This document shows, one piece after another, positions 29,408-43,436 of a DNA stretch of 43,577 bases. The stretch is from Macrostomum lignano (taxonomy: Eukaryota). The position numbers and the translations under genes were made by a program. The stretch spans positions 1-43,577 of the forward strand of contig NIVC01004512.1 of NCBI GenBank assembly GCA_002269645.1, written 5' to 3'. The number at the start of each line of letters is the position of its first letter. Position 1 is the first letter of the stretch. The notes under the pieces were generated by a model. The model worked only from the letters and a program-made list of their open reading frames with translations, was not told the origin of the DNA and ran no database searches.

Positions 29408-31073
29408 CTGATATCTGATTTATTACAGAGCAATCTTTGATATCTGGTTTATTACAGAGCAATCTTTGATATCTGGTTTATTACAGAGCAATCTTTGATA
29501 TCTGGTTTATTACAGAGAAATCTTTGATATCTGATTATCTATTACAGAGAAATCTTTGATATCAGATTATCTATTACAGAGCAATCTTTGATATCTGATT
29601 ATCTATTACAGAGCAATCTTTGATATCTGGTTTATTACAGAGCAATCTTTGATATCTGGTTTATTACAGAGCAATCTTTGATATCTGGTTTATTACAGAG
29701 CAATCTTTGATATCTGGTTTATTACAGAGCAATCTTTGATATCTGGTTTATTACAGAGCAATCTTTGATATCTGGTTTATTACAGAGCAATCTTTGATAT
29801 CTGGTTTATTACAGAGCAGTCTTTGATATCTGGTTTATTACAGAGCAATCTTTGATATCTGGTTTATTACAGAGCAATCTTTGATATCTGGTTTATTACA
29901 GAGCAATCTTTGATATCTGGTTTATTACAGAGCAATCTTTGATATCTGGTTTATTACAGAGCAATCTTTGATATCTGGTTTATTACAGAGCAATCTTTGA
30001 TATCTGGTTTATTACAGAGCAATCTTTGATATCTGGTTTATTACAGAGCAATCTTTGATATCTGGTTTATTACAGAGCAATCTTTGATATCTGGTTTATT
30101 ACAGAGCAATCTTTGATATCTGGTTTATTACAGAGCAATCTTTGATATCTGGTTTATTACAGAGCAATCTTTGATATCTGGTTTATTACAGAGCAATCTT
30201 TGATATCTGGTTTATTACAGAGCAATCTTTGATATCTGGTTTATTACAGAGCAATCTTTGATATCTGGTTTATTACAGAGCAATCTTTGATATCTGGTTT
30301 ATTACAGAGCAATCTTTGATATCTGGTTTATTACAGAGCAATCTTTGATATCTGGTTTATTACAGAGCAGTCTTTGATATCTGGTTTATTACAGAGCAAT
30401 CTTTGATATCTGGTTTATTACAGAGCAATCTTTGATATCTGGTTTATTACAGAGCAATCTTTGATATCTGGTTTATTACAGAGCAATCTTTGATATCTGG
30501 TTTATTACAGAGCAATCTTTGATATCTGGTTTATTACAGAGCAATCTTTGATATCTGGTTTATTACAGAGCAATCTTTGATATCTGGTTTATTACAGAGC
30601 AATCTTTGATATCTGGTTTATTACAGAGCAATCTTTGATATCTGGTTTATTACAGAGCAATCTTTGATATCTGGTTTATTACAGAGCAATCTTTGATATC
30701 TGGTTTATTACAGAGCAATCTTTGATATCTGGTTTATTACAGAGCAATCTTTGATATCTGGTTTATTACAGAGCAATCTTTGATATCTGGTTTATTACAG
30801 AGCAATCTTTGATATCTGGTTTATTACAGAGCAATCTTTGATATCTGGTTTATTACAGAGGAATCTTTGATATCTGGTTTATTACAGAGCAATCTTTGAT
30901 ATCTGGTTTATTACAGAGCAATCTTTGATATCTGGTTTATTACAGAGCAATCTTTGATATCTGGTTTATTACAGAGCAATCTTTGATATCTGGTTTATTA
31001 CAGAGCAATCTTTGATATCTGGTTTATTACAGAGCAATCTTTGATATCTGGTTTATTACAGAGCAATCTTTGA
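29408..31073. repeat. Highly homogeneous 29-bp satellite (CTGGTTTATTACAGAGCAATCTTTGATAT), about 57 copies, ending 7 bp before the RBM33-like ATG
   Basis: Head-to-tail identical units with no spacers. Confidence 0.97.
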
Positions 31074-31080
31074 AAATTGA

Positions 31081-34000
31081 ATGTCTCGCTATCGCTACGC
31101 CAACGATCTGGATCTTGAGCCAGACGATATTGATGATGATGACGAAGAATTCGTTCTAGAACATCGAGTTGGCCTGACAGCATCGGCTGCTACTGCCAGT
31201 GGCGGAACTAATAGCGATGTTGGTCGCTACCAGCTCACAGAAGAGGATGAAGAACAGCTGCTGGGCAGCGATGCGGAGTCTTGCGACGGAACGGCTGCTC
31301 CGGCTGCAACTGCCCAGCTGATAGGCAGTCTTAATAGCGTCGACAACGACAATAGTAATACTAATAATAATAATAGTAACCAAATTGAATGCAGCGATAA
31401 TAATAGTAATAATAATAATGATAATAATAATGCCGACGGAGTCGATCTACACGACGAAGACGATCCCGACGCTATTGTTGTCGGCGTTGATATCGACGAC
31501 GAGGATGTCGATGATCTGTTGCAACTCTCCGCTGGCGAAGACGATATTGACGATGAAGCGCCTGCCGCCCAGCCTGCCGCTGGTCGGTCGCCCATTGCCG
31601 TCAAGCGGAAAGCATCCTCGCCAATGCCGCCGCCGACTGCCCCGCCTCAGCCAGCGGCATCAGTCGCCAACGACAGCATCGGCAGCAGCTCCAAGGCTTC
31701 AATAATGAATTCACCCGAATTACTGACTAAAAACGGCATAGTAACCATCAAGCGTCCAGAATTGCCAAAGCCGCTTGCACACAGTCAGCAGTCGAGTTCG
31801 TCTGCCAGCGCTCAGCTACCAGTAGACGATGACTACGAGCGACGCTACGAAGAATTAAAAGAGAAGCAAGCTCGAATCCGGCGCATGATACAGAATAAGA
31901 AAGAGCAGAATAGACTGGCTCGGGTTGGAGCGGCTGCTCCTAAGCCTCAGCAGCCTCAGGCTCAGCCGCCGCAGGCGCCTCAGCAGCGGCAGAATCAGAT
32001 TCGACCTTCAACTGGTCCCGCTGGTCCCCGCGCTGGAATAGCGGCCCGGGCGCCAATAGCCGCTGTTCCGACAAAGCCTTTGATGCAGCAGCAGCAGCAG
32101 AGGCCTGTGCGACCTCCATTTGTACCGCCGCAGCAGCAGCGGCCGTTTGTTCAAAGAGCCGCTCCGGCCGCAACCAGTCTGCTGCAGCAGCATCGCGGCC
32201 AGCTGCCCCGACAGGCTCCAATCAACTCGCTGTTTAACAATCACCAGCTCAGGCAGCCGATGCCCAACCAGCAGCAGCAACTGTTCATGCCGGCCTTCTC
32301 AATGTCATCGATTACATCATCGGTTGTCGCCAATGTTGTCGCTTCCGCCGTGTCAGCCGGCGTTGCTCACGGTCGTCGGTCTGTTCGCATCGCCAACTGT
32401 CCGCCTGGCACCGGGCCTAACGATTTAAAAGTCTATACTGAGCTGGTGGGGCCTGTGCAGGTACGCATGGTTGAGTTCTTGTGCTGCTGTCTCTTGTTTT
32501 CTGTGCTTTAAAGTGTGCTGAGTAGTTAATGGGGTGGCTAAGAGCGTAGCTGAGTGTCTATTAATGTAGCTGAAGGGGTAGCTGAGTGTCTATAGATGTA
32601 GTTGAAGGGGTAGCTGAGTGTATAAATGGTTGCTGAGTGTTGATTAAGGGTAGCTGAAGGGTTAGCTGACTGTACGAGTATAAATGGTTGCTGAGTGTCT
32701 TTAGATGTAGCTAAGTAGGATGTGGGAGGCTGAGTGTATAAATGATTGCTGAGTGTTGATAAAGGGTAGCTGCAGGGGTAGCTGAGTGTCTATAGATGTA
32801 GCTGCAGGGGTAGCTGAGTGTCTATAGATGTAGCTTAAGGGATAGCTGAGTGTCTATAGATGTAGCTTAAGGGATAGCTGAGTGTCTATAGATGTAGCTG
32901 AAGGAGTAGCTGAGTGTCTATAGATGTAGCTTAAGGGATAGCTAAGTGTCTATAGATGTAGCTTAAGGGATAGCTGAGTGTCTATAGATGTAGCTTAAGG
33001 GATAGCTGAGTGTCTATAGATGTAGCTGAAGGGGTAGCTGAGTGTCTATAGATGTAGCTGAAGGGGTAGCTGAGTGTCTGTAGATGTAGCTGAAGGGATA
33101 GTGAGTGTCTATAGATGTAGCTTAAGGGATAGCTGAGTGTCTATAGATGTAGCTTAAGGGGTAGCTGAGTGTCTATAGATGTAGCTGAAGGGGTAGCTGA
33201 GTGTCTATAGATGTAGCTGAAGGGGTAGCTGAGTGTCTATAGATGTAGCTGAAGGGGTAGCTGAGTGTCTATAGATGTAGCTGAAGGGGTAGCTGAGTGT
33301 CTATAGATGTAGCTGAAGGGGTAGCTGAGTGTCTATAGATGTAGTTGAAGGGGTAACTACTAAGGGATTCCGTATGGCTTGATTTTGGAGGTGGGGTGGG
33401 TGTCAACCCTCCTCGCCTCTCATTGGCTGGCGCCCCGATCACTAGGTGATCGATACCCGTATCGATATCGGCGACTCGAACCCGCGACCCTCCCCAGCCG
33501 CAGGCGCACCTACCGATATTAGATCCCAATAAATCAATCAGATCCCAAATCAATCAGATCCCAAATCAATCAGATCCCAAGCGCACCCTCCCGAGCCGCA
33601 GGCGCCCATGCAGCAGGCGCCCATGCCGCAGGCACCCCGAGTGTACACTCTCCCGATATGTGTGTACACCGATATGTAGTCATCGATACGGGCCTCTTCC
33701 CCTCTCTCACCTACATCTCAACTAGCGAAATCGAACCCAGGTCGCGCCCATACTAGGACACTACACGGTTGTGGGGTATAGGGAGCGAGAAGTTTCAACC
33801 CTAACGCTGACGCAGCCCTGTACAGTGAGAGTGTACGGGCAGAGAGGGGTGGGGCGGACAGAGAACCAGCCACTAGGTTGTTATACTGTTGAAGCATAGG
33901 GAGCGAGAAGTTTTAACCCCGATGCTGACGCAGCCCTGTACACTGAGCGTGTACGGGCAGAGGGTGGGTGGAAAGAGATGTGAATAACACAGCCTGCTGC

Positions 34001-37000
34001 AGGAGCCGGATAGAGAGGCGCATGCTAGGACAGAGAGGTAGTGTGAGTCACACACACCCCACAGAGAAAGCCATACAGAGGATAGAGAGCTCCCTCCCCA
34101 GTTGCAGGGGACAGAGAGGCAGGCAGGGTATGCAGGGGCATGCGAACCGTCAAGGGGCCACGCGAGGATAGAGTGGAGGAGCAGAGATGTGTTTGGACAG
34201 AGAGCCAGCCACGTGTGCGTAGTGTGAGGGAACAGAAACATATGGAGCAGGAGGGAGATAGGAAGCAAACGCGCAGGGTAAGGGAGCCATGCAGCAGGGA
34301 GCAGTGTACAGTGAGACACGGGCAGGGGTGGAGCCGTGCGTGGACAGAGCTGAACGGCACGGTCAGCTGCAGGAATAGGATGATAGAGAGGCGCGGAGGG
34401 GGACAGAGAGCAGTGTGCAGGGTAGGCAGCCACGCAGGCTGGGGAACAGAGAGGCGCGTGTCAGCCAGTTACAGCCCGGGACAGAGAAGTATGAAGGGGG
34501 GCCTGGGACAGAGAAGTATGAAGGGGGGCCTGGGACAGAGTTGCGAGCAAGGCACAGAGAGAGGTAGGGTCCGGTAGCTATGTATAGGCAGGGACCCACG
34601 CGAGGGCAGGACAGGGCATGCAAGGCATGCAAATTACATGCAAGGGCAGTGAGGTGTGCGCGGAGGGAGACAGAGAGCAGTGTGTAGGGGTAGGTAACAG
34701 CAAACTTTAGTAGAGGCGCGTGCGGGGACGGAGAAACCAGTCTGAACGTACAGAGACGTTACAGAGAGGTACACAAACAGAGACCAAAGCGGGCAGAGCA
34801 CGTGTAGGGACAGAGACGTGAGGGAGAATAGACCAAAACACGCTATGTATTTTCAAAAGTTGGTTTTAGTGCAGCATATTTAATAGCGGGTAGTATAATA
34901 GTATGTACATAGTAGGTATAATGGTAGTAATAATAGTAAGTATATTAGCCCAAAAGGTAGGCTAAAACAGGCTAAACTGTGTGTACGCATCCTCATCACC
35001 CCACAAGCCCCCTCTCCCGCCAGACTCACTCTTCCATACCCTCCTGTATTGCTGTATGAAGGAAAATATAGTGTAAAAATACAGATCTTAACCGTCAGAC
35101 CGCTGAAATCAGGGCACACTAGAGGGGTTTCGGGGTCTGCATGCTCTATGTAAGCTGTTTCAATTATGTTTTGAAAAAACTAGGGGCTTAAATACAACGT
35201 TTTATTCAAAAAGTAGGTTATTTTAATGAAATAGCTGACACAATCATTGTCGAGAGTAGAAATTTTTATAAGAAACCAGGCATTTTAGCAAAAATAAACC
35301 TTCAAACCACATAAAATTGAATAAAAAGCAGACATTTTCAATTATAAACCGCAAGTATTTTAATAGAAAAGTAAGCAAACAAGGCACAAAACCAGCAAAT
35401 TTTACCTTTTTATTTTAATGTTACTGATAAGGTAGAGAGTAGAAACTTGTGAGCTGTACGGAGTTAGAAAGTATTAACCATTATGTATCGTATGAATTAT
35501 TAGTTCAGTACCAGCCATTGGTCAAGCGAGCATTTATGAAGTTATTACGAGTGATGAAGGGATAGAGAGCTATATACAGGAAGACAGTATCCTTCTAAAC
35601 CACCACGAACAGATTGCTAATAGAGATAAGCTTTGTCTGTGTGCAGTATGAGTAAGCGAAGGCGGGGCAAATACTTTTCCACATGCCGGACAGAACAGTA
35701 TTGTGCTAGGATTTCTCTCGAAATCACGGTACGTTACTAGTTTTTATCACACCATCCAGATGCGTCAACTAGTCAGCAGTAGTCATTTATATGTTATTAG
35801 AACTTACAAACCCAGGTCAAGTAAATATTACAAAGAGTATATTACGTACACACGCCAACTCCGAATACCAAGCCATACTAGTCTACTTGCAGTGCTCCTG
35901 GAGGGAAGGGACGGCGGGGTGTACACCCGGCAGGGTGGGCGTCCAGCGAGTGTACATCTGACAGGATGGGTGTTCAGCAAGTGTACATCTGACAGGGTGG
36001 GCGTTCAGCAAGTGTACCTTCAGCGTCGAGTAGGTGTACACCCGTCAGTGGGGAACTCCACCCCTCCCACCAATGTCGTGTGCATGCGGTTAGTCAGTAT
36101 AGTGGTGGGGTAGACGGTGCAGGAAGGAAACCCAGATGCTGACGCTGCCCTGTACAGCGAGCAACCAGCCCCCTGTAGCAGGGGGGGACAGAGAGTGCGT
36201 GGAGGCAGTAGGAGATAGAGGACGCTACCCGGCATGTCGCAGCACGCGGCGCGGGACAGAGGCAGTGTGTAAGTCACCCCCGCGGAGAGAGCTCCCCTGG
36301 CAGGAGGCGCGGGACAGAGAGGCGGTGAATCACACCCCACGGAGAGAGCCGTACAACGAGCTTCCCCACCCGAGTCCGGTAAATATTACAGAGTATTACG
36401 TGCACACACCAGCCCTGAATACCAAGCCATACTAGTCTATCTGCAGTGCTCCCAGAGGGAAGGGATGGTCAGGAGTTACACACCAAGAATGCATTCATAC
36501 AAAGAGTACACAACTCGAGCCCAGACACCAAGTCACAGTCTACTTACAGTAGAGATGGTAGATTAATAGCAAGATTATATTACAATTAGACCTCTCTAGC
36601 ACATGAGGAGTGAAATTCAATAATAATTGAATTCAATAATAATACAACATTTAGACGTAGTAATTTAATTACAAAATACCACTAACACTGAGCCAACGAA
36701 TTGTAGGTTACAAAGGAGTTGCCACTCATATGGAAAGCCAGTATAATGCAGGTGTGTATTATTAAAACATAGACAAAAACGATGCAGACGTATATACACA
36801 CTATTGATTTTGTACATGTACATTTCGGCATATTACCACACATCGCGGGCACATATTATATATCGGGGGATAGGTTAAAATACACACATCGTAGATGTAG
36901 AAGCAGACACAATGCAGGAAAATTATGATACGAGTGTACATATTAGTGCGTAAAAGTATCATATTATGACACCCTGTAGCACATATTGACATAATGCAGG

Positions 37001-40000
37001 GGAAAATATTGACAGAAATAGTACACAATTGTAGAGGTAACAACCAGCCAACTAGTAAGGGCATCCAGCACTTGTTCAGGTTTTTTTTATTTCGAGACGA
37101 GTGTCATGCCCCCGCAAGAGATCTTATCAGAAATTTGTTGAACTCCACTGCAACTCTCCCCAGAGCCTCCAAATGGGAGTTTTAACACTTGAGGGGATCC
37201 CGCTCAATGTACAGTGCGGACGGAGAGGGGTAACAGAAAGCGCTGCATCAGACCGCGGAGCTGCATTCCTCCCCGAGGTAGGCGCGTCAGCTCCCACTCC
37301 TCATTTAACCATCAAGTAAACTAAAGAAGTCAAGCAGAAAGCCTTACAATCACCCGCAACCAGCACAAGTAAGAGTACTTTCCACTAGAGAGCCATAGTG
37401 CAAGATTCGCGAGCCAAGTTGAAGAAGCACACCAAATTACACTAAAGACATATGTATTAAAAAGCATACCGGCACCTCTACAAAAACACAGTATGTACCG
37501 ATTAAAGTTGCTTTTGGTGCAGTGTATTTAATAAAAAGCAGGTACCTAACACAAAAGTAGGCATCAATGCAGTGCACGGGCTAAACTGTATTTACAAACG
37601 CAGGGCAACGAACTACACACAATGTAGCGCATAGACATAATTGTACACATAAATGTACGCAATTTCCGGTATATAGGACCAAATGTACGCAAATGTACAC
37701 AATGTACACAAACACACACACACTCAGGCGTATTCACAGCAAGAGCTTCCTGCCGATGGCGCCATCGCCTGCGGCGATCGGTGCTGCAGGATGCGCTGCA
37801 GGATGCGCCTGAGTGTGTGTGTGTTTGTGTGCATTGTGTACATTTGCGTACATTTGGTCCTATATACCGGAGATTGCGTACATTTATGTGTACAATTATG
37901 TCTATGCGCTACATTGTGTGTAGTTCGTTGCCCTGCGTTTGTAAATACAGTTTAGCCCGTGCACTGCATTGATGCCTACTTTTGTGTTAGGTACCTGCTT
38001 TTTATTAAATACACTGCACCAAAAGCAACTTTAATCGGTACATACTGTGTTTTTGTAGAGGTGCCGGTATGCTTTTTAATACATATGTCTTTAGTGTAAT
38101 TTGGTGTGCTTCTTCAACTTGGCTCGCGAATCTTGCACTATGGCTCTCTAGTGGAAAGTACTCTTACTTGTGCTGGTTGCGGGTGATTGTAAGGCTTTCT
38201 GCTTGACTTCTTTAGTTTACTTGATGGTTAAATGAGGAGTGGGAGCTGACGCGCCTACCTCGGGGGAGGAATGCAGCTCCGCGGTCTGATGCAGCGCTTT
38301 CTGTTACCCCTCTCCGTCCGCACTGTACATTGAGCGGGATCCCCTCAAGTGTTAAAACTCCATTTGGAGGCTCTGGGAGAGTTGCAGTGGAGTTCAACAA
38401 ATTTCTGATAAGATCTCTTGCGGGGCATGACACTCGTCTCGAAATAAAAAAAACCTGAACAAGTGCTGGATGCCCTTACTAGTTGGCTGGTTGTTACCTC
38501 TACAATTGTGTACTATTTCTGTCAATATTTTCCCCTGCATTATGTCAATATGTGCTACAGGGTGTCATAATATGATACTTTTACGCACTAATATGTACAC
38601 TCGTATCATAATTTTCCTGCATTGTGTCTGCTTCTACATCTACGATGTGTGTATTTTAACCTATCCCCCGATATATAATATGTGCCCGCGATGTGTGGTA
38701 ATATGCCGAAATGTACATGTACAAAATCAATAGTGTGTATATACGTCTGCATCGTTTTTGTCTATGTTTTAATAATACACACCTGCATTATACTGGCTTT
38801 CCATATGAGTGGCAACTCCTTTGTAACCTACAATTCGTTGGCTCAGTGTTAGTGGTATTTTGTAATTAAATTACTACGTCTAAATGTTGTATTATTATTG
38901 AATTCAATTATTATTGAATTTCACTCCTCATGTGCTAGAGAGGTCTAATTGTAATATAATCTTGCTATTAATCTACCATCTCTACTGTAAGTAGACTGTG
39001 ACTTGGTGTCTGGGCTCGAGTTGTGTACTCTTTGTATGAATGCATTCTTGGTGTGTAACTCCTGACCATCCCTTCCCTCTGGGAGCACTGCAGATAGACT
39101 AGTATGGCTTGGTATTCAGGGCTGGTGTGTGCACGTAATACTCTGTAATATTTACCGGACTCGGGTGGGGAAGCTCGTTGTACGGCTCTCTCCGTGGGGT
39201 GTGATTCACCGCCTCTCTGTCCCGCGCCTCCTGCCAGGGGAGCTCTCTCCGCGGGGGTGACTTACACACTGCCTCTGTCCCGCGCCGCGTGCTGCGACAT
39301 GCCGGGTAGCGTCCTCTATCTCCTACTGCCTCCACGCACTCTCTGTCCCCCTCCTGCTACAGGGGGCTGGTTGCTCGCTGTACAGGGCAGCGTCAGCATC
39401 TGGGTTTCCTTCCTGCACCGTCTACCCCACCACTATACTGACTAACCGCATGCACACGACATTGGTGGGAGGGGTGGAGTTCCCCACTGACGGGTGTACA
39501 CCTACTCGACGCTGAAGGTACACTTGCTGAACGCCCACCCTGTCAGATGTACACTTGCTGAACACCCATCCTGTCAGATGTACACTCGCTGGACGCCCAC
39601 CCTGCCGGTGTACACCCCGCCGTCCCTTCCCTCCAGGAGCACTGCAAGTAGACTAGTATGGCTTGGTATTCGGAGTTGGCGTGTGTACGTAATATACTCT
39701 TTGTAATATTTACTTGACCTGGGTTTGTAAGTTCTAATAACATATAAATGACTACTGCTGACTAGTTGACGCATCTGGATGGTGTGATAAAAACTAGTAA
39801 CGTACCGTGATTTCGAGAGAAATCCTAGCACAATACTGTTCTGTCCGGCATGTGGAAAAGTATTTGCCCCGCCTTCGCTTACTCATACTGCACACAGACA
39901 AAGCTTATCTCTATTAGCAATCTGTTCGTGGTGGTTTAGAAGGATACTGTCTTCCTGTATATAGCTCTCTATCCCTTCATCACTCGTAATAACTTCATAA

Positions 40001-43000
40001 ATGCTCGCTTGACCAATGGCTGGTACTGAACTAATAATTCATACGATACATAATGGTTAATACTTTCTAACTCCGTACAGCTCACAAGTTTCTACTCTCT
40101 ACCTTATCAGTAACATTAAAATAAAAAGGTAAAATTTGCTGGTTTTGTGCCTTGTTTGCTTACTTTTCTATTAAAATACTTGCGGTTTATAATTGAAAAT
40201 GTCTGCTTTTTATTCAATTTTATGTGGTTTGAAGGTTTATTTTTGCTAAAATGCCTGGTTTCTTATAAAAATTTCTACTCTCGACAATGATTGTGTCAGC
40301 TATTTCATTAAAATAACCTACTTTTTGAATAAAACGTTGTATTTAAGCCCCTAGTTTTTTCAAAACATAATTGAAACAGCTTACATAGAGCATGCAGACC
40401 CCGAAACCCCTCTAGTGTGCCCTGATTTCAGCGGTCTGACGGTTAAGATCTGTATTTTTACACTATATTTTCCTTCATACAGCAATACAGGAGGGTATGG
40501 AAGAGTGAGTCTGGCGGGAGAGGGGGCTTGTGGGGTGATGAGGATGCGTACACACAGTTTAGCCTGTTTTAGCCTACCTTTTGGGCTAATATACTTACTA
40601 TTATTACTACCATTATACCTACTATGTACATACTATTATACTACCCGCTATTAAATATGCTGCACTAAAACCAACTTTTGAAAATACATAGCGTGTTTTG
40701 GTCTATTCTCCCTCACGTCTCTGTCCCTACACGTGCTCTGCCCGCTTTGGTCTCTGTTTGTGTACCTCTCTGTAACGTCTCTGTACGCTCAGACTGGTTT
40801 CTCCGTCCCGCACGCGCCTCTACTAAAGTTTGCTGTTACCTACCCCTACACACTGCTCTCTGTCTCCCTCCGCGCACACCTCACTGCCCTTGCATGTAAT
40901 TTGCATGCCTTGCATGCCCTGTCCTGCCCTCGCGTGGGTCCCTGCCTATACATAGCTACCGGACCCTACCTCTCTCTGTGCCTTGCTCGCAACTCTGTCC
41001 CAGGCCCCCCTTCATACTTCTCTGTCCCAGGCCCCCCTTCATACTTCTCTGTCCCGGGCTGTAACTGGCTGACACGCGCCTCTCTGTTCCCCAGCCTGCG
41101 TGGCTGCCTACCCTGCACACTGCTCTCTGTCCCCCTCCGCGCCTCTCTATCATCCTATTCCTGCAGCTGACCGTGCCGTTCAGCTCTGTCCACGCACGGC
41201 TCCACCCCTGCCCGTGTCTCACTGTACACTGCTCCCTGCTGCATGGCTCCCTTACCCTGCGCGTTTGCTTCCTATCTCCCTCCTGCTCCATATGTTTCTG
41301 TTCCCTCACACTACGCACACGTGGCTGGCTCTCTGTCCAAACACATCTCTGCTCCTCCACTCTATCCTCGCGTGGCCCCTTGACGGTTCGCATGCCCCTG
41401 CATACCCTGCCTGCCTCTCTGTCCCCTGCAACTGGGGAGGGAGCTCTCTATCCTCTGTATGGCTTTCTCTGTGGGGTGTGTGTGACTCACACTACCTCTC
41501 TGTCCTAGCATGCGCCTCTCTATCCGGCTCCTGCAGCAGGCTGTGTTATTCACATCTCTTTCCACCCACCCTCTGCCCGTACACGCTCAGTGTACAGGGC
41601 TGCGTCAGCATCGGGGTTAAAACTTCTCGCTCCCTATGCTTCAACAGTATAACAACCTAGTGGCTGGTTCTCTGTCCGCCCCACCCCTCTCTGCCCGTAC
41701 ACTCTCACTGTACAGGGCTGCGTCAGCGTTAGGGTTGAAACTTCTCGCTCCCTATACCCCACAACCGTGTAGTGTCCTAGTATGGGCGCGACCTGGGTTC
41801 GATTTCGCTAGTTGAGATGTAGGTGAGAGAGGGGAAGAGGCCCGTATCGATGACTACATATCGGTGTACACACATATCGGGAGAGTGTACACTCGGGGTG
41901 CCTGCGGCATGGGCGCCTGCTGCATGGGCGCCTGCGGCTCGGGAGGGTGCGCTTGGGATCTGATTGATTTGGGATCTGATTGATTTGGGATCTGATTGAT
42001 TTATTGGGATCTAATATCGGTAGGTGCGCCTGCGGCTGGGGAGGGTCGCGGTTCGAGTCGCCGATATCGATACGGGTATCGATCACCTAGTGATCGGGCG
42101 CCAGCCAATGAGAGGCGAGGAGGGTTGACACCCACCTCACAAAATCAAGCCATACGGAATCCCTTAGTAGTGGGTAGCTGAGTGTATAAATGGTTGCTGA
42201 GTGTTGATTAAGGGTAGCTGAAGGGTTAGCTGACTGTACGAGTATAAATGGTTGCTGAGTGTCTTTAGATGTAGCTAAGTAGGATGTGGAGGCTGAGTGT
42301 ATAAATGATTGCTGAGTGTTGATAAAGGGTAGCTGCAGGGGTAGCTGAGTGTCTATAGATGTAGCTGCAGGGTAGCTGAGTGTCTATAGATGTAGCTGCA
42401 GGGGTAGCTGAGTGTCTATAGATGTAGCTGCAGGGGTAGCTGAGTGTCTATAGATGTAGCTGAAGGGTAGCTGAGTTCTATAGATGTAGCTGAAGGGGTA
42501 GCTGAGTGTCTATAGATGTAGCTGAAGGGTAGTTGAGTGTCTATAGATGTAGTTGAAGGGGTAGCTGAGTGTATAAAATGGTTGCTGAGTGTTGATTAAG
42601 GGTAGCTGAAGGGTTAGCTGACTGTACGAGTATAAATGGTTGCTGAGTGTCTTTAGATGTAGCTAAGTAGGATGTGGGAGGCTGAGTGTATAAATGATTG
42701 CTGAGTGTTGATAAATGGTAGCTGCAGGGGTAGCTGAGTGTCTATAGATGTAGCTGAAGGGTAGCTGAGTGTCTATAGATGTAGCTGAAGGGGTAGCTGA
42801 GTGTCTATAGATGTAGCTGAATGGGTAGCTGAGTGTCTATAGATGTAGCTGAAGGGTAGCTGAGTGTCTATAGATGTAGCTGAAGAGGTAGCTGAGTGTC
42901 TATAGATGTAGCTGAAGGGTAGCTGAGTGTCTATAGATGTAGCTGAAGGGGTTGCTGAGTGTCTATAGATGTAGCTGAAGGGGTAGCTGAGTGTCTATAG

Positions 43001-43436
43001 ATGTAGCTGAAGGGTTGCTGAGTGTCTATAGATGTAGCTGAAGGGGTTGCTGAGTGTCTATAGATGTAGCTGAAGGGGTTGCTGAGTGTCTATAGATGTA
43101 GCTGAAGGGGTAGCTGAGTCGGACTGTCTACCTCCGACTCAAGGGTAGCTGAGGTGCGCGCCTGTACACCGGACTGAAACTGGGCCAGTTACTAACTAAG
43201 CTAAGCCTCCGAAAACCCTCAGAACTGCCAAGTGTACCCCAACAATGGCCAGGCTTACATCACATTCTGCTATCCTGAGCATGCGCAAGAGTTTCTTCAG
43301 AGATTCAATCGGTAATTGATGAGAATATTTATATTTGTTCTCTCAAAGATTGCATTGTACTTACAAATTTCATGACTCCTTTGTTTCTTTCAGAGCGCAC
43401 CTGAAAGGCTACCAACTGCAGCTGACCCTATGCTAA
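31081..43436 (+). CDS. RBM33-like RNA-binding protein: acidic N-terminus, coiled coil, P/Q-rich region, C-terminal RRM split over three exons
   Basis: Exons 31081-32460, 43223-43311 and 43394-43436 have consistent phases (0, 2) across a 10.76-kb intron 1. The spliced RRM is SVRIANCPPGTGPNDLKVYTELVGPVQ|NCQVYPNNGQAYITFCYPEHAQEFLQRFNR|AHLKGYQLQLTLC*. It resembles the recalled RBM33 C-terminal RRM (..VGPIQ..EPAHALAFQQKFHRH..). Orthology is from memory, so no symbol is given. Confidence 0.8.
32520..33355. repeat. 32-bp satellite (TAGCTGAGTGTCTATAGATGTAGCTGAAGGGG), left of the palindrome
   Basis: Tandem units in intron 1 of the RBM33-like gene. Confidence 0.95.
33356..42171. mobile_element. 8.8-kb palindromic (foldback-like) non-coding insertion; arms 33356-37730 and 37806-42171, spacer 37731-37805
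   Basis: The right arm is the reverse complement of the left along its length. Mirrored ORF pairs in the track confirm this, e.g. 33873-34433/41100-41660, 34880-35119/40415-40654 and 36801-37064/38470-38733. Termini are ACTACTAAGGGATTCCGTATGG...CCATACGGAATCCCTTAGTAGT, with GGGTA on both sides. Confidence 0.92.
42172..43115. repeat. Same 32-bp satellite, right of the palindrome, same orientation
   Basis: The array resumes in register after the duplicated GGGTA. Confidence 0.95.

Follow-up and report, generated by a model that had tools for sequence, protein, structure and literature searches.

Vertebrate Mavericks (Polintons), in the sections of PMC8097293 drawn on here, carry one of three short-repeat end motifs, (AGT)2//(ACT)2, (AG)3//(CT)3 or (AC)3A//T(GT)3. 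Jump-back protein priming has been argued for Mavericks from their terminal repeats, and their strand-displacement, hairpin-forming replication so far rests on the analogy with adenovirus (PMC8097293). One published Polinton search, as outlined in the part of PMC10748475 consulted, demanded all five query proteins within 20 kb. Bidnaviruses, as presented in parts of PMC8502044 and PMC11071296, are bipartite, with up to 12 segments, and have a protein-primed polymerase (pPolB) and matching segment ends. Here, a 43,577-bp stretch of Macrostomum lignano DNA (assembly GCA_002269645.1, contig NIVC01004512.1, positions 1 to 43,577 of the forward strand; the window) was analyzed, which contains a gene-less palindromic element at 33356-42171. 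We consider this element to be, with a probability of about 0.75, a snap-back, defective-interfering-like satellite of a bipartite Maverick/Polinton, the polymerase and the integrase and capsid of which were found on separate elements with the same ends.

The window element is 8,816 bp long, and its two halves are reverse-complementary (99.5% over 4.4 kb) around a 69-nucleotide (nt) loop. At the left junction, the flank ...GAAGGGGTA meets ACTACTAAGGG, with the element starting at 33356; at the right junction, CCCTTAGTAGT meets GGGTAGCTG, with the element ending at 42171. These letters are as described in an earlier note made from the sequence alone (the original prediction), which read them most simply as ACTACT ends with a 5-bp target-site duplication (TSD), GGGTA, or alternatively as CACTA-like ends, 1 nt longer, with a 3-bp TSD. 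Aligning the flanks of many copies, which it had proposed as the way to decide between 5 and 3 bp, gave neither length: a perfect 6-bp TSD was observed in 54 of 57 bounded elements, and the first outer base varied (A8/C9/G10/T3 in 30 ends). A perfect 6-bp TSD was lacking in the window element (5 bp), C5162 (flanks from two different sites, on a contig that is likely chimeric), and C1313 (one mismatch). Among the 23 paired elements derived from the terminal 17-mer, 22 had a 6-bp TSD and the window element alone had 5 bp; five additional elements of the class B2 introduced below, outside the 57, likewise had 6 bp.

The same insertion is present on contig C2232, where the right flank (99.2% identical over 1,416 columns, with 0 mismatches and 12 gap openings) reads GGGGTA, equal to the left flank in the window (GGGGTA, 33350-33355, forward strand, delimited by a flank comparison including C2232). 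The right copy in the window (GGGTA, 42172-42176, forward strand) is therefore one G short within a G run, most likely through an assembly error; a comparable single-base disagreement exists between contigs C3499 and C1575 at one shared site. EnSpm/CACTA elements have CACTA/G ends and a 2-3 bp TSD, and Transib is an example of a superfamily with a 5-bp TSD. The EnSpm/CACTA identity was rejected on the variable outer base and on the 3-bp reading, which fits 3 of 57 elements, and the 5-bp superfamilies were rejected since 5 bp occurs in 1 of 57 and is contradicted by C2232 at the same site.

The ends of these elements are not a product of chance. The terminal 17-mer had 63 exact matches in the genome versus 0 for the control, and the looser pattern ACTACTA-N19-21-TTTTGSRRRK had 334 versus 3 (334 being the total count, with the first 100 itemized). 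In this family, the ends follow (ACT)2//(AGT)2, which mirrors the usual Maverick motif; in the window, the motif lies at 33356-33362 (ACTACTA, forward strand), is invariant, and would likely serve as origin and integrase end. What had appeared as a puzzle of the ends is a 6-bp TSD together with a new Maverick end motif, and the remark in the original prediction on protein-primed, Polinton-type repeat ends of reversed polarity was right, as the partner elements carry Maverick proteins.

ACTACT ends bound three main classes, A, B, and P, and further gene-less and hybrid forms are present. Class A (9.0-9.8 kb, with terminal inverted repeats (TIRs) mostly of ~0.9-1.2 kb) encodes a protein-primed polymerase (PF03175, E 8e-18 and 6e-13) and open reading frames (ORFs) of 177 and 336 aa, without integrase or capsid. 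Among named proteins, those closest to this polymerase come from Macrostomum lignano, with 90-99% identity for the best three. For the 177-aa ORF, a PC4 match was weak (E 0.19) and the structure model useless (predicted local distance difference test, pLDDT, of 36), and the 336-aa ORF gave near-identical relatives only, with no useful PDB match. Class B (~10.5 kb, 10.3-10.7 kb in 15 of 18 end pairs, with a TIR of ~0.65 kb) is without a polymerase and encodes, all on one strand, an rve integrase, a 427-aa major capsid protein (MCP), a protease, an ATPase, a Fic ORF, and further ORFs. Its integrase (PF00665, rve, E 2.1e-9) has the D, D and E residues present and is 35% identical to a resident Maverick integrase; the ATPase and protease also match resident Mavericks. 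The capsid model (pLDDT 74) showed a double-jelly-roll fold matching the PBCV-1 (Vp54), mavirus, and Sputnik capsids (best E 1e-15), and F54H12.2-like homologues were found for this protein. With a 379-aa ORF that we take to be the minor capsid protein (mCP), judging by its position and a motif, the gene order is integrase-mCP-small ORF-MCP-protease. The Fic-domain ORF (L071:794-1597, E 7e-14) has no match in B2, and a TBP-like frame (L071:3135-3668, E 9.5e-5) is also found in B2. A comparison with PHROGs returned nothing useful. A short-read contig spans integrase through ATPase into the TIR, with no polymerase, so class B is not a long-read artefact. Among viral and metagenome contigs, no relative locus of the A/B system was found; three capsids at 80-81% identity are all on contigs <4 kb, too short to show architecture. 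In one B copy (C1329:164773-175277), the right end has one trinucleotide repeat fewer and the TSD is still a perfect 6 bp, as an incomplete jump-back would give.

GT..AG stretches break up the polymerase of class A, with three of these stretches lying in its catalytic motifs. Three of five donor contexts were present in 11/11 A copies, and the other two in 6 and 5 of 11. Contigs of putative RNA runs skip two of the stretches exactly (in 3/4 and 4/4 runs), and a third skip occurs in one record; with the runs taken as putative RNA, the polymerase gene is shown to be split by introns and spliced. No GT..AG joints were seen in segment B.

The separation of the two gene sets was consistent throughout the genome. 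None of 50 bounded ACTAC-ended elements carried the family polymerase together with the family integrase or capsid, and no such pair was found in seven further bounded elements (0/7), including candidates of 14-34 kb. Genome-wide, 96 polymerase loci (56 A1, 40 A2) were counted at a minimum identity of ~54%, with split hits merged, weak hits dropped, and 134/134 candidates scored, along with 62 capsid loci (28 B1, 34 B2) at an identity of at least 67%, taken from the best 95 of 448 candidates, which extended to relatives of 30%. Polymerase and capsid loci share a contig in three cases, the nearest pair being 47.7 kb apart. The integrase search covered the best 113 of 1,545 candidates, and the capsid and integrase matches together reach down to relatives of 30-37%. 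For a more distant polymerase at C234, a search for ends was negative, as was one for capsid or integrase matches within 30 kb. Elements with pPolB and elements with a retroviral-type integrase do share the terminal bases of the window element, as the original prediction had envisaged for autonomous partners; that polymerase and integrase would be on separate elements was not anticipated there, and the window element carries neither.

The larger elements were examined as joined copies of A and B (C4, C56, C106, C150, C271, C2210, C126, C221, C1485, C1486, C1945, and C2286), and none is joined. The extra length of C4, C2132, C2286, and C1945 includes P-element- or LINE-like ORFs, namely a THAP/P-element-like transposase ORF in C2132 and, by its similar start, in C4, and LINE-like reverse transcriptase ORFs in two A2 elements (C2286 and C1945). 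C106 and C271 contain nested AGTAGT elements. C12 is a degraded B with a polymerase fragment ~7 kb away that is of the resident type and not the family polymerase.

Class P, to which the window element belongs, comprises 16 examined family-1 palindromes, all gene-less, 6.7-9.4 kb long, and with distinct flanks; 15 of them have a perfect 6-bp TSD, the exception being the window element. The left arm in the window (33356-37733, forward strand, ~4.38 kb) is non-coding: 0/9 scanned frames matched Pfam, out of 26 frames of at least 90 aa in the element (many of them mirror duplicates), the element had no Rfam match, 16 A/B protein pieces gave no tblastn match to the arm, and tblastx of the element returned TIR patches only. 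The right arm (37803-42171, reverse strand), 99.5% identical to the left, terminates in TAGTAGT. Between them, the central loop (37734-37802, no strand assigned) forms an imperfect hairpin conserved between copies, and its sequence has 54 genome matches versus 0 for the control, not all of which were checked as palindromes; the predicted fold of the palindrome center (-70 kcal/mol) is trivial for any palindrome. The arm combines patches of A-TIR, B-TIR-like, and A 3' sequence in a mosaic. Its terminal 300 bp (33356-33656, forward strand) are related to the TIR of segment A (97% for nt 1-123 and 72% for nt 125-301), a patch at 35915-36328 (forward strand) resembles the segment-B TIR (~70%), and 47 bp at 37170-37216 (reverse strand) are identical to the sequence directly behind the segment-A polymerase stop; the latter two are mirrored in the right arm. 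When 12 copies were compared, 149 of 166 substitutions relative to the window arm were present in both arms.

In blastn comparisons, A and B align over nt 1-32 only, plus one marginal 36-bp patch (E 1.7e-4). Within this region, nt 8-27 (33363-33382 in the window, forward strand) form a 20-nt hypervariable block, of which the ends of 43 family-1 elements show 30 variants, and most of its sub-blocks occur in more than one class, being common to A, B, and non-coding elements. Two of the seven B end variants were found identical on coding A copies, and three of seven on A or non-coding elements. The left end differs from the right in 12/43 elements (one on a chimeric contig and three by a single base) and equals it in 16/16 palindromes, a contrast that is biased because the pattern used to select most palindromes occurs at both ends. 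We infer that template switching may take place among co-replicating molecules. Two hybrids (C428:214927-223625 and C4851) consist of 4.2 kb of the window arm (100%) joined to the 3' 3.1 kb of the A polymerase; they are palindrome x A recombinants, and the C428 hybrid has a perfect TSD. A further palindrome-type element (C106:353964-375023) contains an inserted 12.1-kb AGTAGT Maverick with the TSD CTAGCA.

A second family, with ends ACTACGTA//TACGTAGT and a 6-bp TSD, repeats the pattern of A, B, and palindrome. B2 is ~10.1 kb long, with a capsid 88% (87-88%) and an integrase ~80% identical to those of B1; A2 is 9.5-10.4 kb without insertions, with polymerase pieces 51-71% identical to A1; and the family-2 palindrome is 9.4 kb with A2-type ends. 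Because family 2 has all three forms, the A/B split was either kept since the lineages parted or occurred twice at the same place. The ends of B2 (e.g. C261 and C384) have the same sub-terminal TTTTGGAGGTGAG as A1, and A2 differs, hinting at a possible exchange of TIRs between the families. A dUTPase ORF lies close to the ends of some family-2 elements (L157:691-1146; C1263). Inverted arrangements were noted at C1313:243594-257956, C3085, and C4430: in a B2 element, capsid, protease, and ATPase form a 3.66-kb inverted duplication, and 5.9-kb family-2 elements contain inverted pairs of polymerase pieces; because of these arrangements, snap-back forms may arise from coding segments too.

Taken as a satellite of this two-part system, the window element works like a Maverick, yet it is no strict member of the group, because it has no genes and because A and B each fail, alone, the definition by polymerase plus integrase. 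The segment-A polymerase would prime at the ACTACT repeat by jump-back and displace one strand. The displaced strand of a palindrome would fold into a 4.4-kb hairpin, rebuilding a duplex origin, and copying round the loop would remake both arms from a single template, which the homogenization of the arms (149/166) fits. The segment-B integrase would then insert the duplex of every class with a 6-bp stagger. The similar sizes of the classes suggest a packaging limit, perhaps with each capsid holding a single segment of 9-10.5 kb. On balance, though with distinctly less assurance, we also lean toward the broader view of a segmented integrating double-stranded DNA virus of an animal, in which a replication segment and an integration/capsid segment of ~9-10.5 kb would be packaged separately, termini would be swapped during co-replication, snap-back parasites would be heritable, and two diverged lineages would exist.

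Several points weigh against this interpretation. The priming, trans-complementation, hairpin intermediates, and particles of the scheme are predictions, and the runs with the splice joints are only guessed to be RNA. A joined A+B copy may have escaped detection in an assembly gap, at the end of a contig, or as extrachromosomal DNA, and the resident full-length AGTAGT Mavericks could be the source of the enzymes. Several contigs duplicate one site, so that the independent sites are fewer than 57. The substitutions present in both arms are mostly shared by related copies and thus reflect few independent events, and gene conversion could also have homogenized the arms. Outside ~760 bp, the arm has no counterpart in A or B, and a direct parent was not found.

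Of the alternatives, the one that survives best, although we hold it improbable, is that deletions in a one-piece ACTACT Maverick of ~20 kb, which is now extinct, unassembled, or extrachromosomal, gave rise independently to A, B, and the palindromes, without any truly bipartite life cycle. A and B together would come to ~20 kb, inside the range of 12.7-24.6 kb stated for vertebrate Mavericks in the section of PMC8097293 used; the integrase-mCP-small ORF-MCP-protease order of B is one conserved Maverick module, and the capsid and integrase surveys took in the best 95 of 448 and the best 113 of 1,545 candidates. Such an ancestor is difficult to reconcile with the lack of a joined copy in 57 bounded elements or among 96 x 62 loci, with A and B TIRs that differ beyond nt 32, and with two families (polymerase pieces 51-71%, capsid 87-88%) split at the same place. 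Moreover, identities of 99-100% between many B copies that have distinct TSDs point to recent movement as B alone.

The genome also harbors one-piece Mavericks that end in AGTAGT//ACTACT and have a 6-bp TSD (C114, 16.8 kb), and the palindromes and A could be satellites that borrow the integrase and capsid of these elements, with B being separate and defective. The presence of such full-length elements, the nesting of AGTAGT elements inside C106 and C271, and numerous integrases 35-37% identical to that of B (among the best 113 of 1,545) speak for this explanation, which we nevertheless regard as very unlikely: the ends differ from the first base on, terminal blocks are common to and exchanged among A, B, and palindromes, the A polymerase gave no tblastn match to the C114 polymerase at E 1e-3, and B itself requires a polymerase capable of reading ACTACT ends. 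One A segment contains a nested 31.9-kb AGTAGT-ended insertion with a 6-bp TSD (C271:282528-314472), the pPolB of which (~1,000-1,200 aa, with a similar-looking ORF at C2322) matches neither the segment-A nor the C114 polymerase and constitutes a third polymerase class in the genome.

There is very little left to recommend a foldback-type non-autonomous cut-and-paste transposon (CACTA or with a 5-bp TSD) unrelated to protein priming. The long non-coding inverted arms do resemble foldback elements, and the window taken alone reads as a 5-bp or 3-bp TSD; across the family, however, the counts of 54/57 for 6 bp and 3/57 for 3 bp and the random outer base refute both CACTA and 5 bp, and the coding elements with ACTACT ends encode Maverick proteins. 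That the palindrome is a fold-back artefact of sequencing or assembly is scarcely credible. Long-read data are known to produce perfect long palindromes artefactually, and homopolymer errors and a chimeric contig (C5162) are present in the assembly; yet 16 family-1 palindromes occur with distinct flanks, 15 with a perfect 6-bp TSD, the same asymmetric loop has 54 genome matches, and the arms hold copy-specific variants.

Around the element, the window contains a 32-bp minisatellite array detected with TRF (32766-43119, forward strand), which lies outside the element and is interrupted by it (32766-33355 and 42172-43119). Positions 1-33355 are dense in micro- and minisatellites with units of 4-58 bp, for example 29 bp x 57 at 29409-31073.

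Protein-primed replicons (phi29, yeast pGKL plasmids) give rise to snap-back defective genomes and hairpin derivatives, which are likewise gene-less palindromes with one origin sequence at both ends and depend on a helper polymerase; such forms were not returned by our literature search. Unlike them, the palindromes described here are integrated, inherited in ~50 chromosomal copies, and have arisen in two families. Long inverted arms without coding capacity are also a feature of foldback elements (FB, Galileo) and of EnSpm/CACTA elements, and the present elements differ from both in TSD length, end motif, and helper proteins, all of Maverick type. The palindromes would be a footprint of strand-displacement, hairpin-forming replication. 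Macrostomum lignano is a laboratory animal in which RNA interference is usable, and with spliced polymerase transcripts in public (putative RNA) runs, the extrachromosomal replication and particle formation of Mavericks become testable.

No report of a split or palindromic Polinton was found in the full-text literature searched, including that on Macrostomum (Repbase/Dfam, supplements, and subscription papers being outside the scope), and the parts of PMC10748475, PMC6431247, and PMC11161782 consulted describe none. Mavericks are defined by polymerase and integrase on one element, and at least one published search demanded linkage, so that split forms would be missed. With Mavericks/Polintons (adintoviruses), as characterized in portions of PMC8097293, PMC10748475, and PMC8502044, the system shares the 6-bp TSD, TIRs ending in a short tandem repeat that suits jump-back, pPolB, the rve integrase, the double-jelly-roll capsid, the protease, the ATPase, and the integrase-mCP-PW-MCP-protease order. 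It differs in that (ACT)2//(AGT)2 is absent from the three vertebrate motifs given in PMC8097293, in that polymerase and integrase/capsid are on separate elements, in the spliceosomal introns of the polymerase, whereas intact vertebrate Mavericks are described as intronless, and in having a multicopy, wholly palindromic gene-less class and a shuffled block at nt 8-27. With bidnaviruses, as covered in parts of PMC8502044 and PMC11071296, it shares segmentation, pPolB, and segments recognized via matching termini. Those viruses are parvovirus-like, with NS1, a single-jelly-roll capsid, and no integrase among the defining genes given in these sources (PMC8502044, PMC11071296); here, no NS1-type family was found among 17 ORFs scanned, which places the system outside the Bidnaviridae, the capsid is of the double-jelly-roll type, and every segment is inserted separately, with a TSD of its own. 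A stable two-segment form would reveal a route by which a double-jelly-roll virus lineage can become multipartite.
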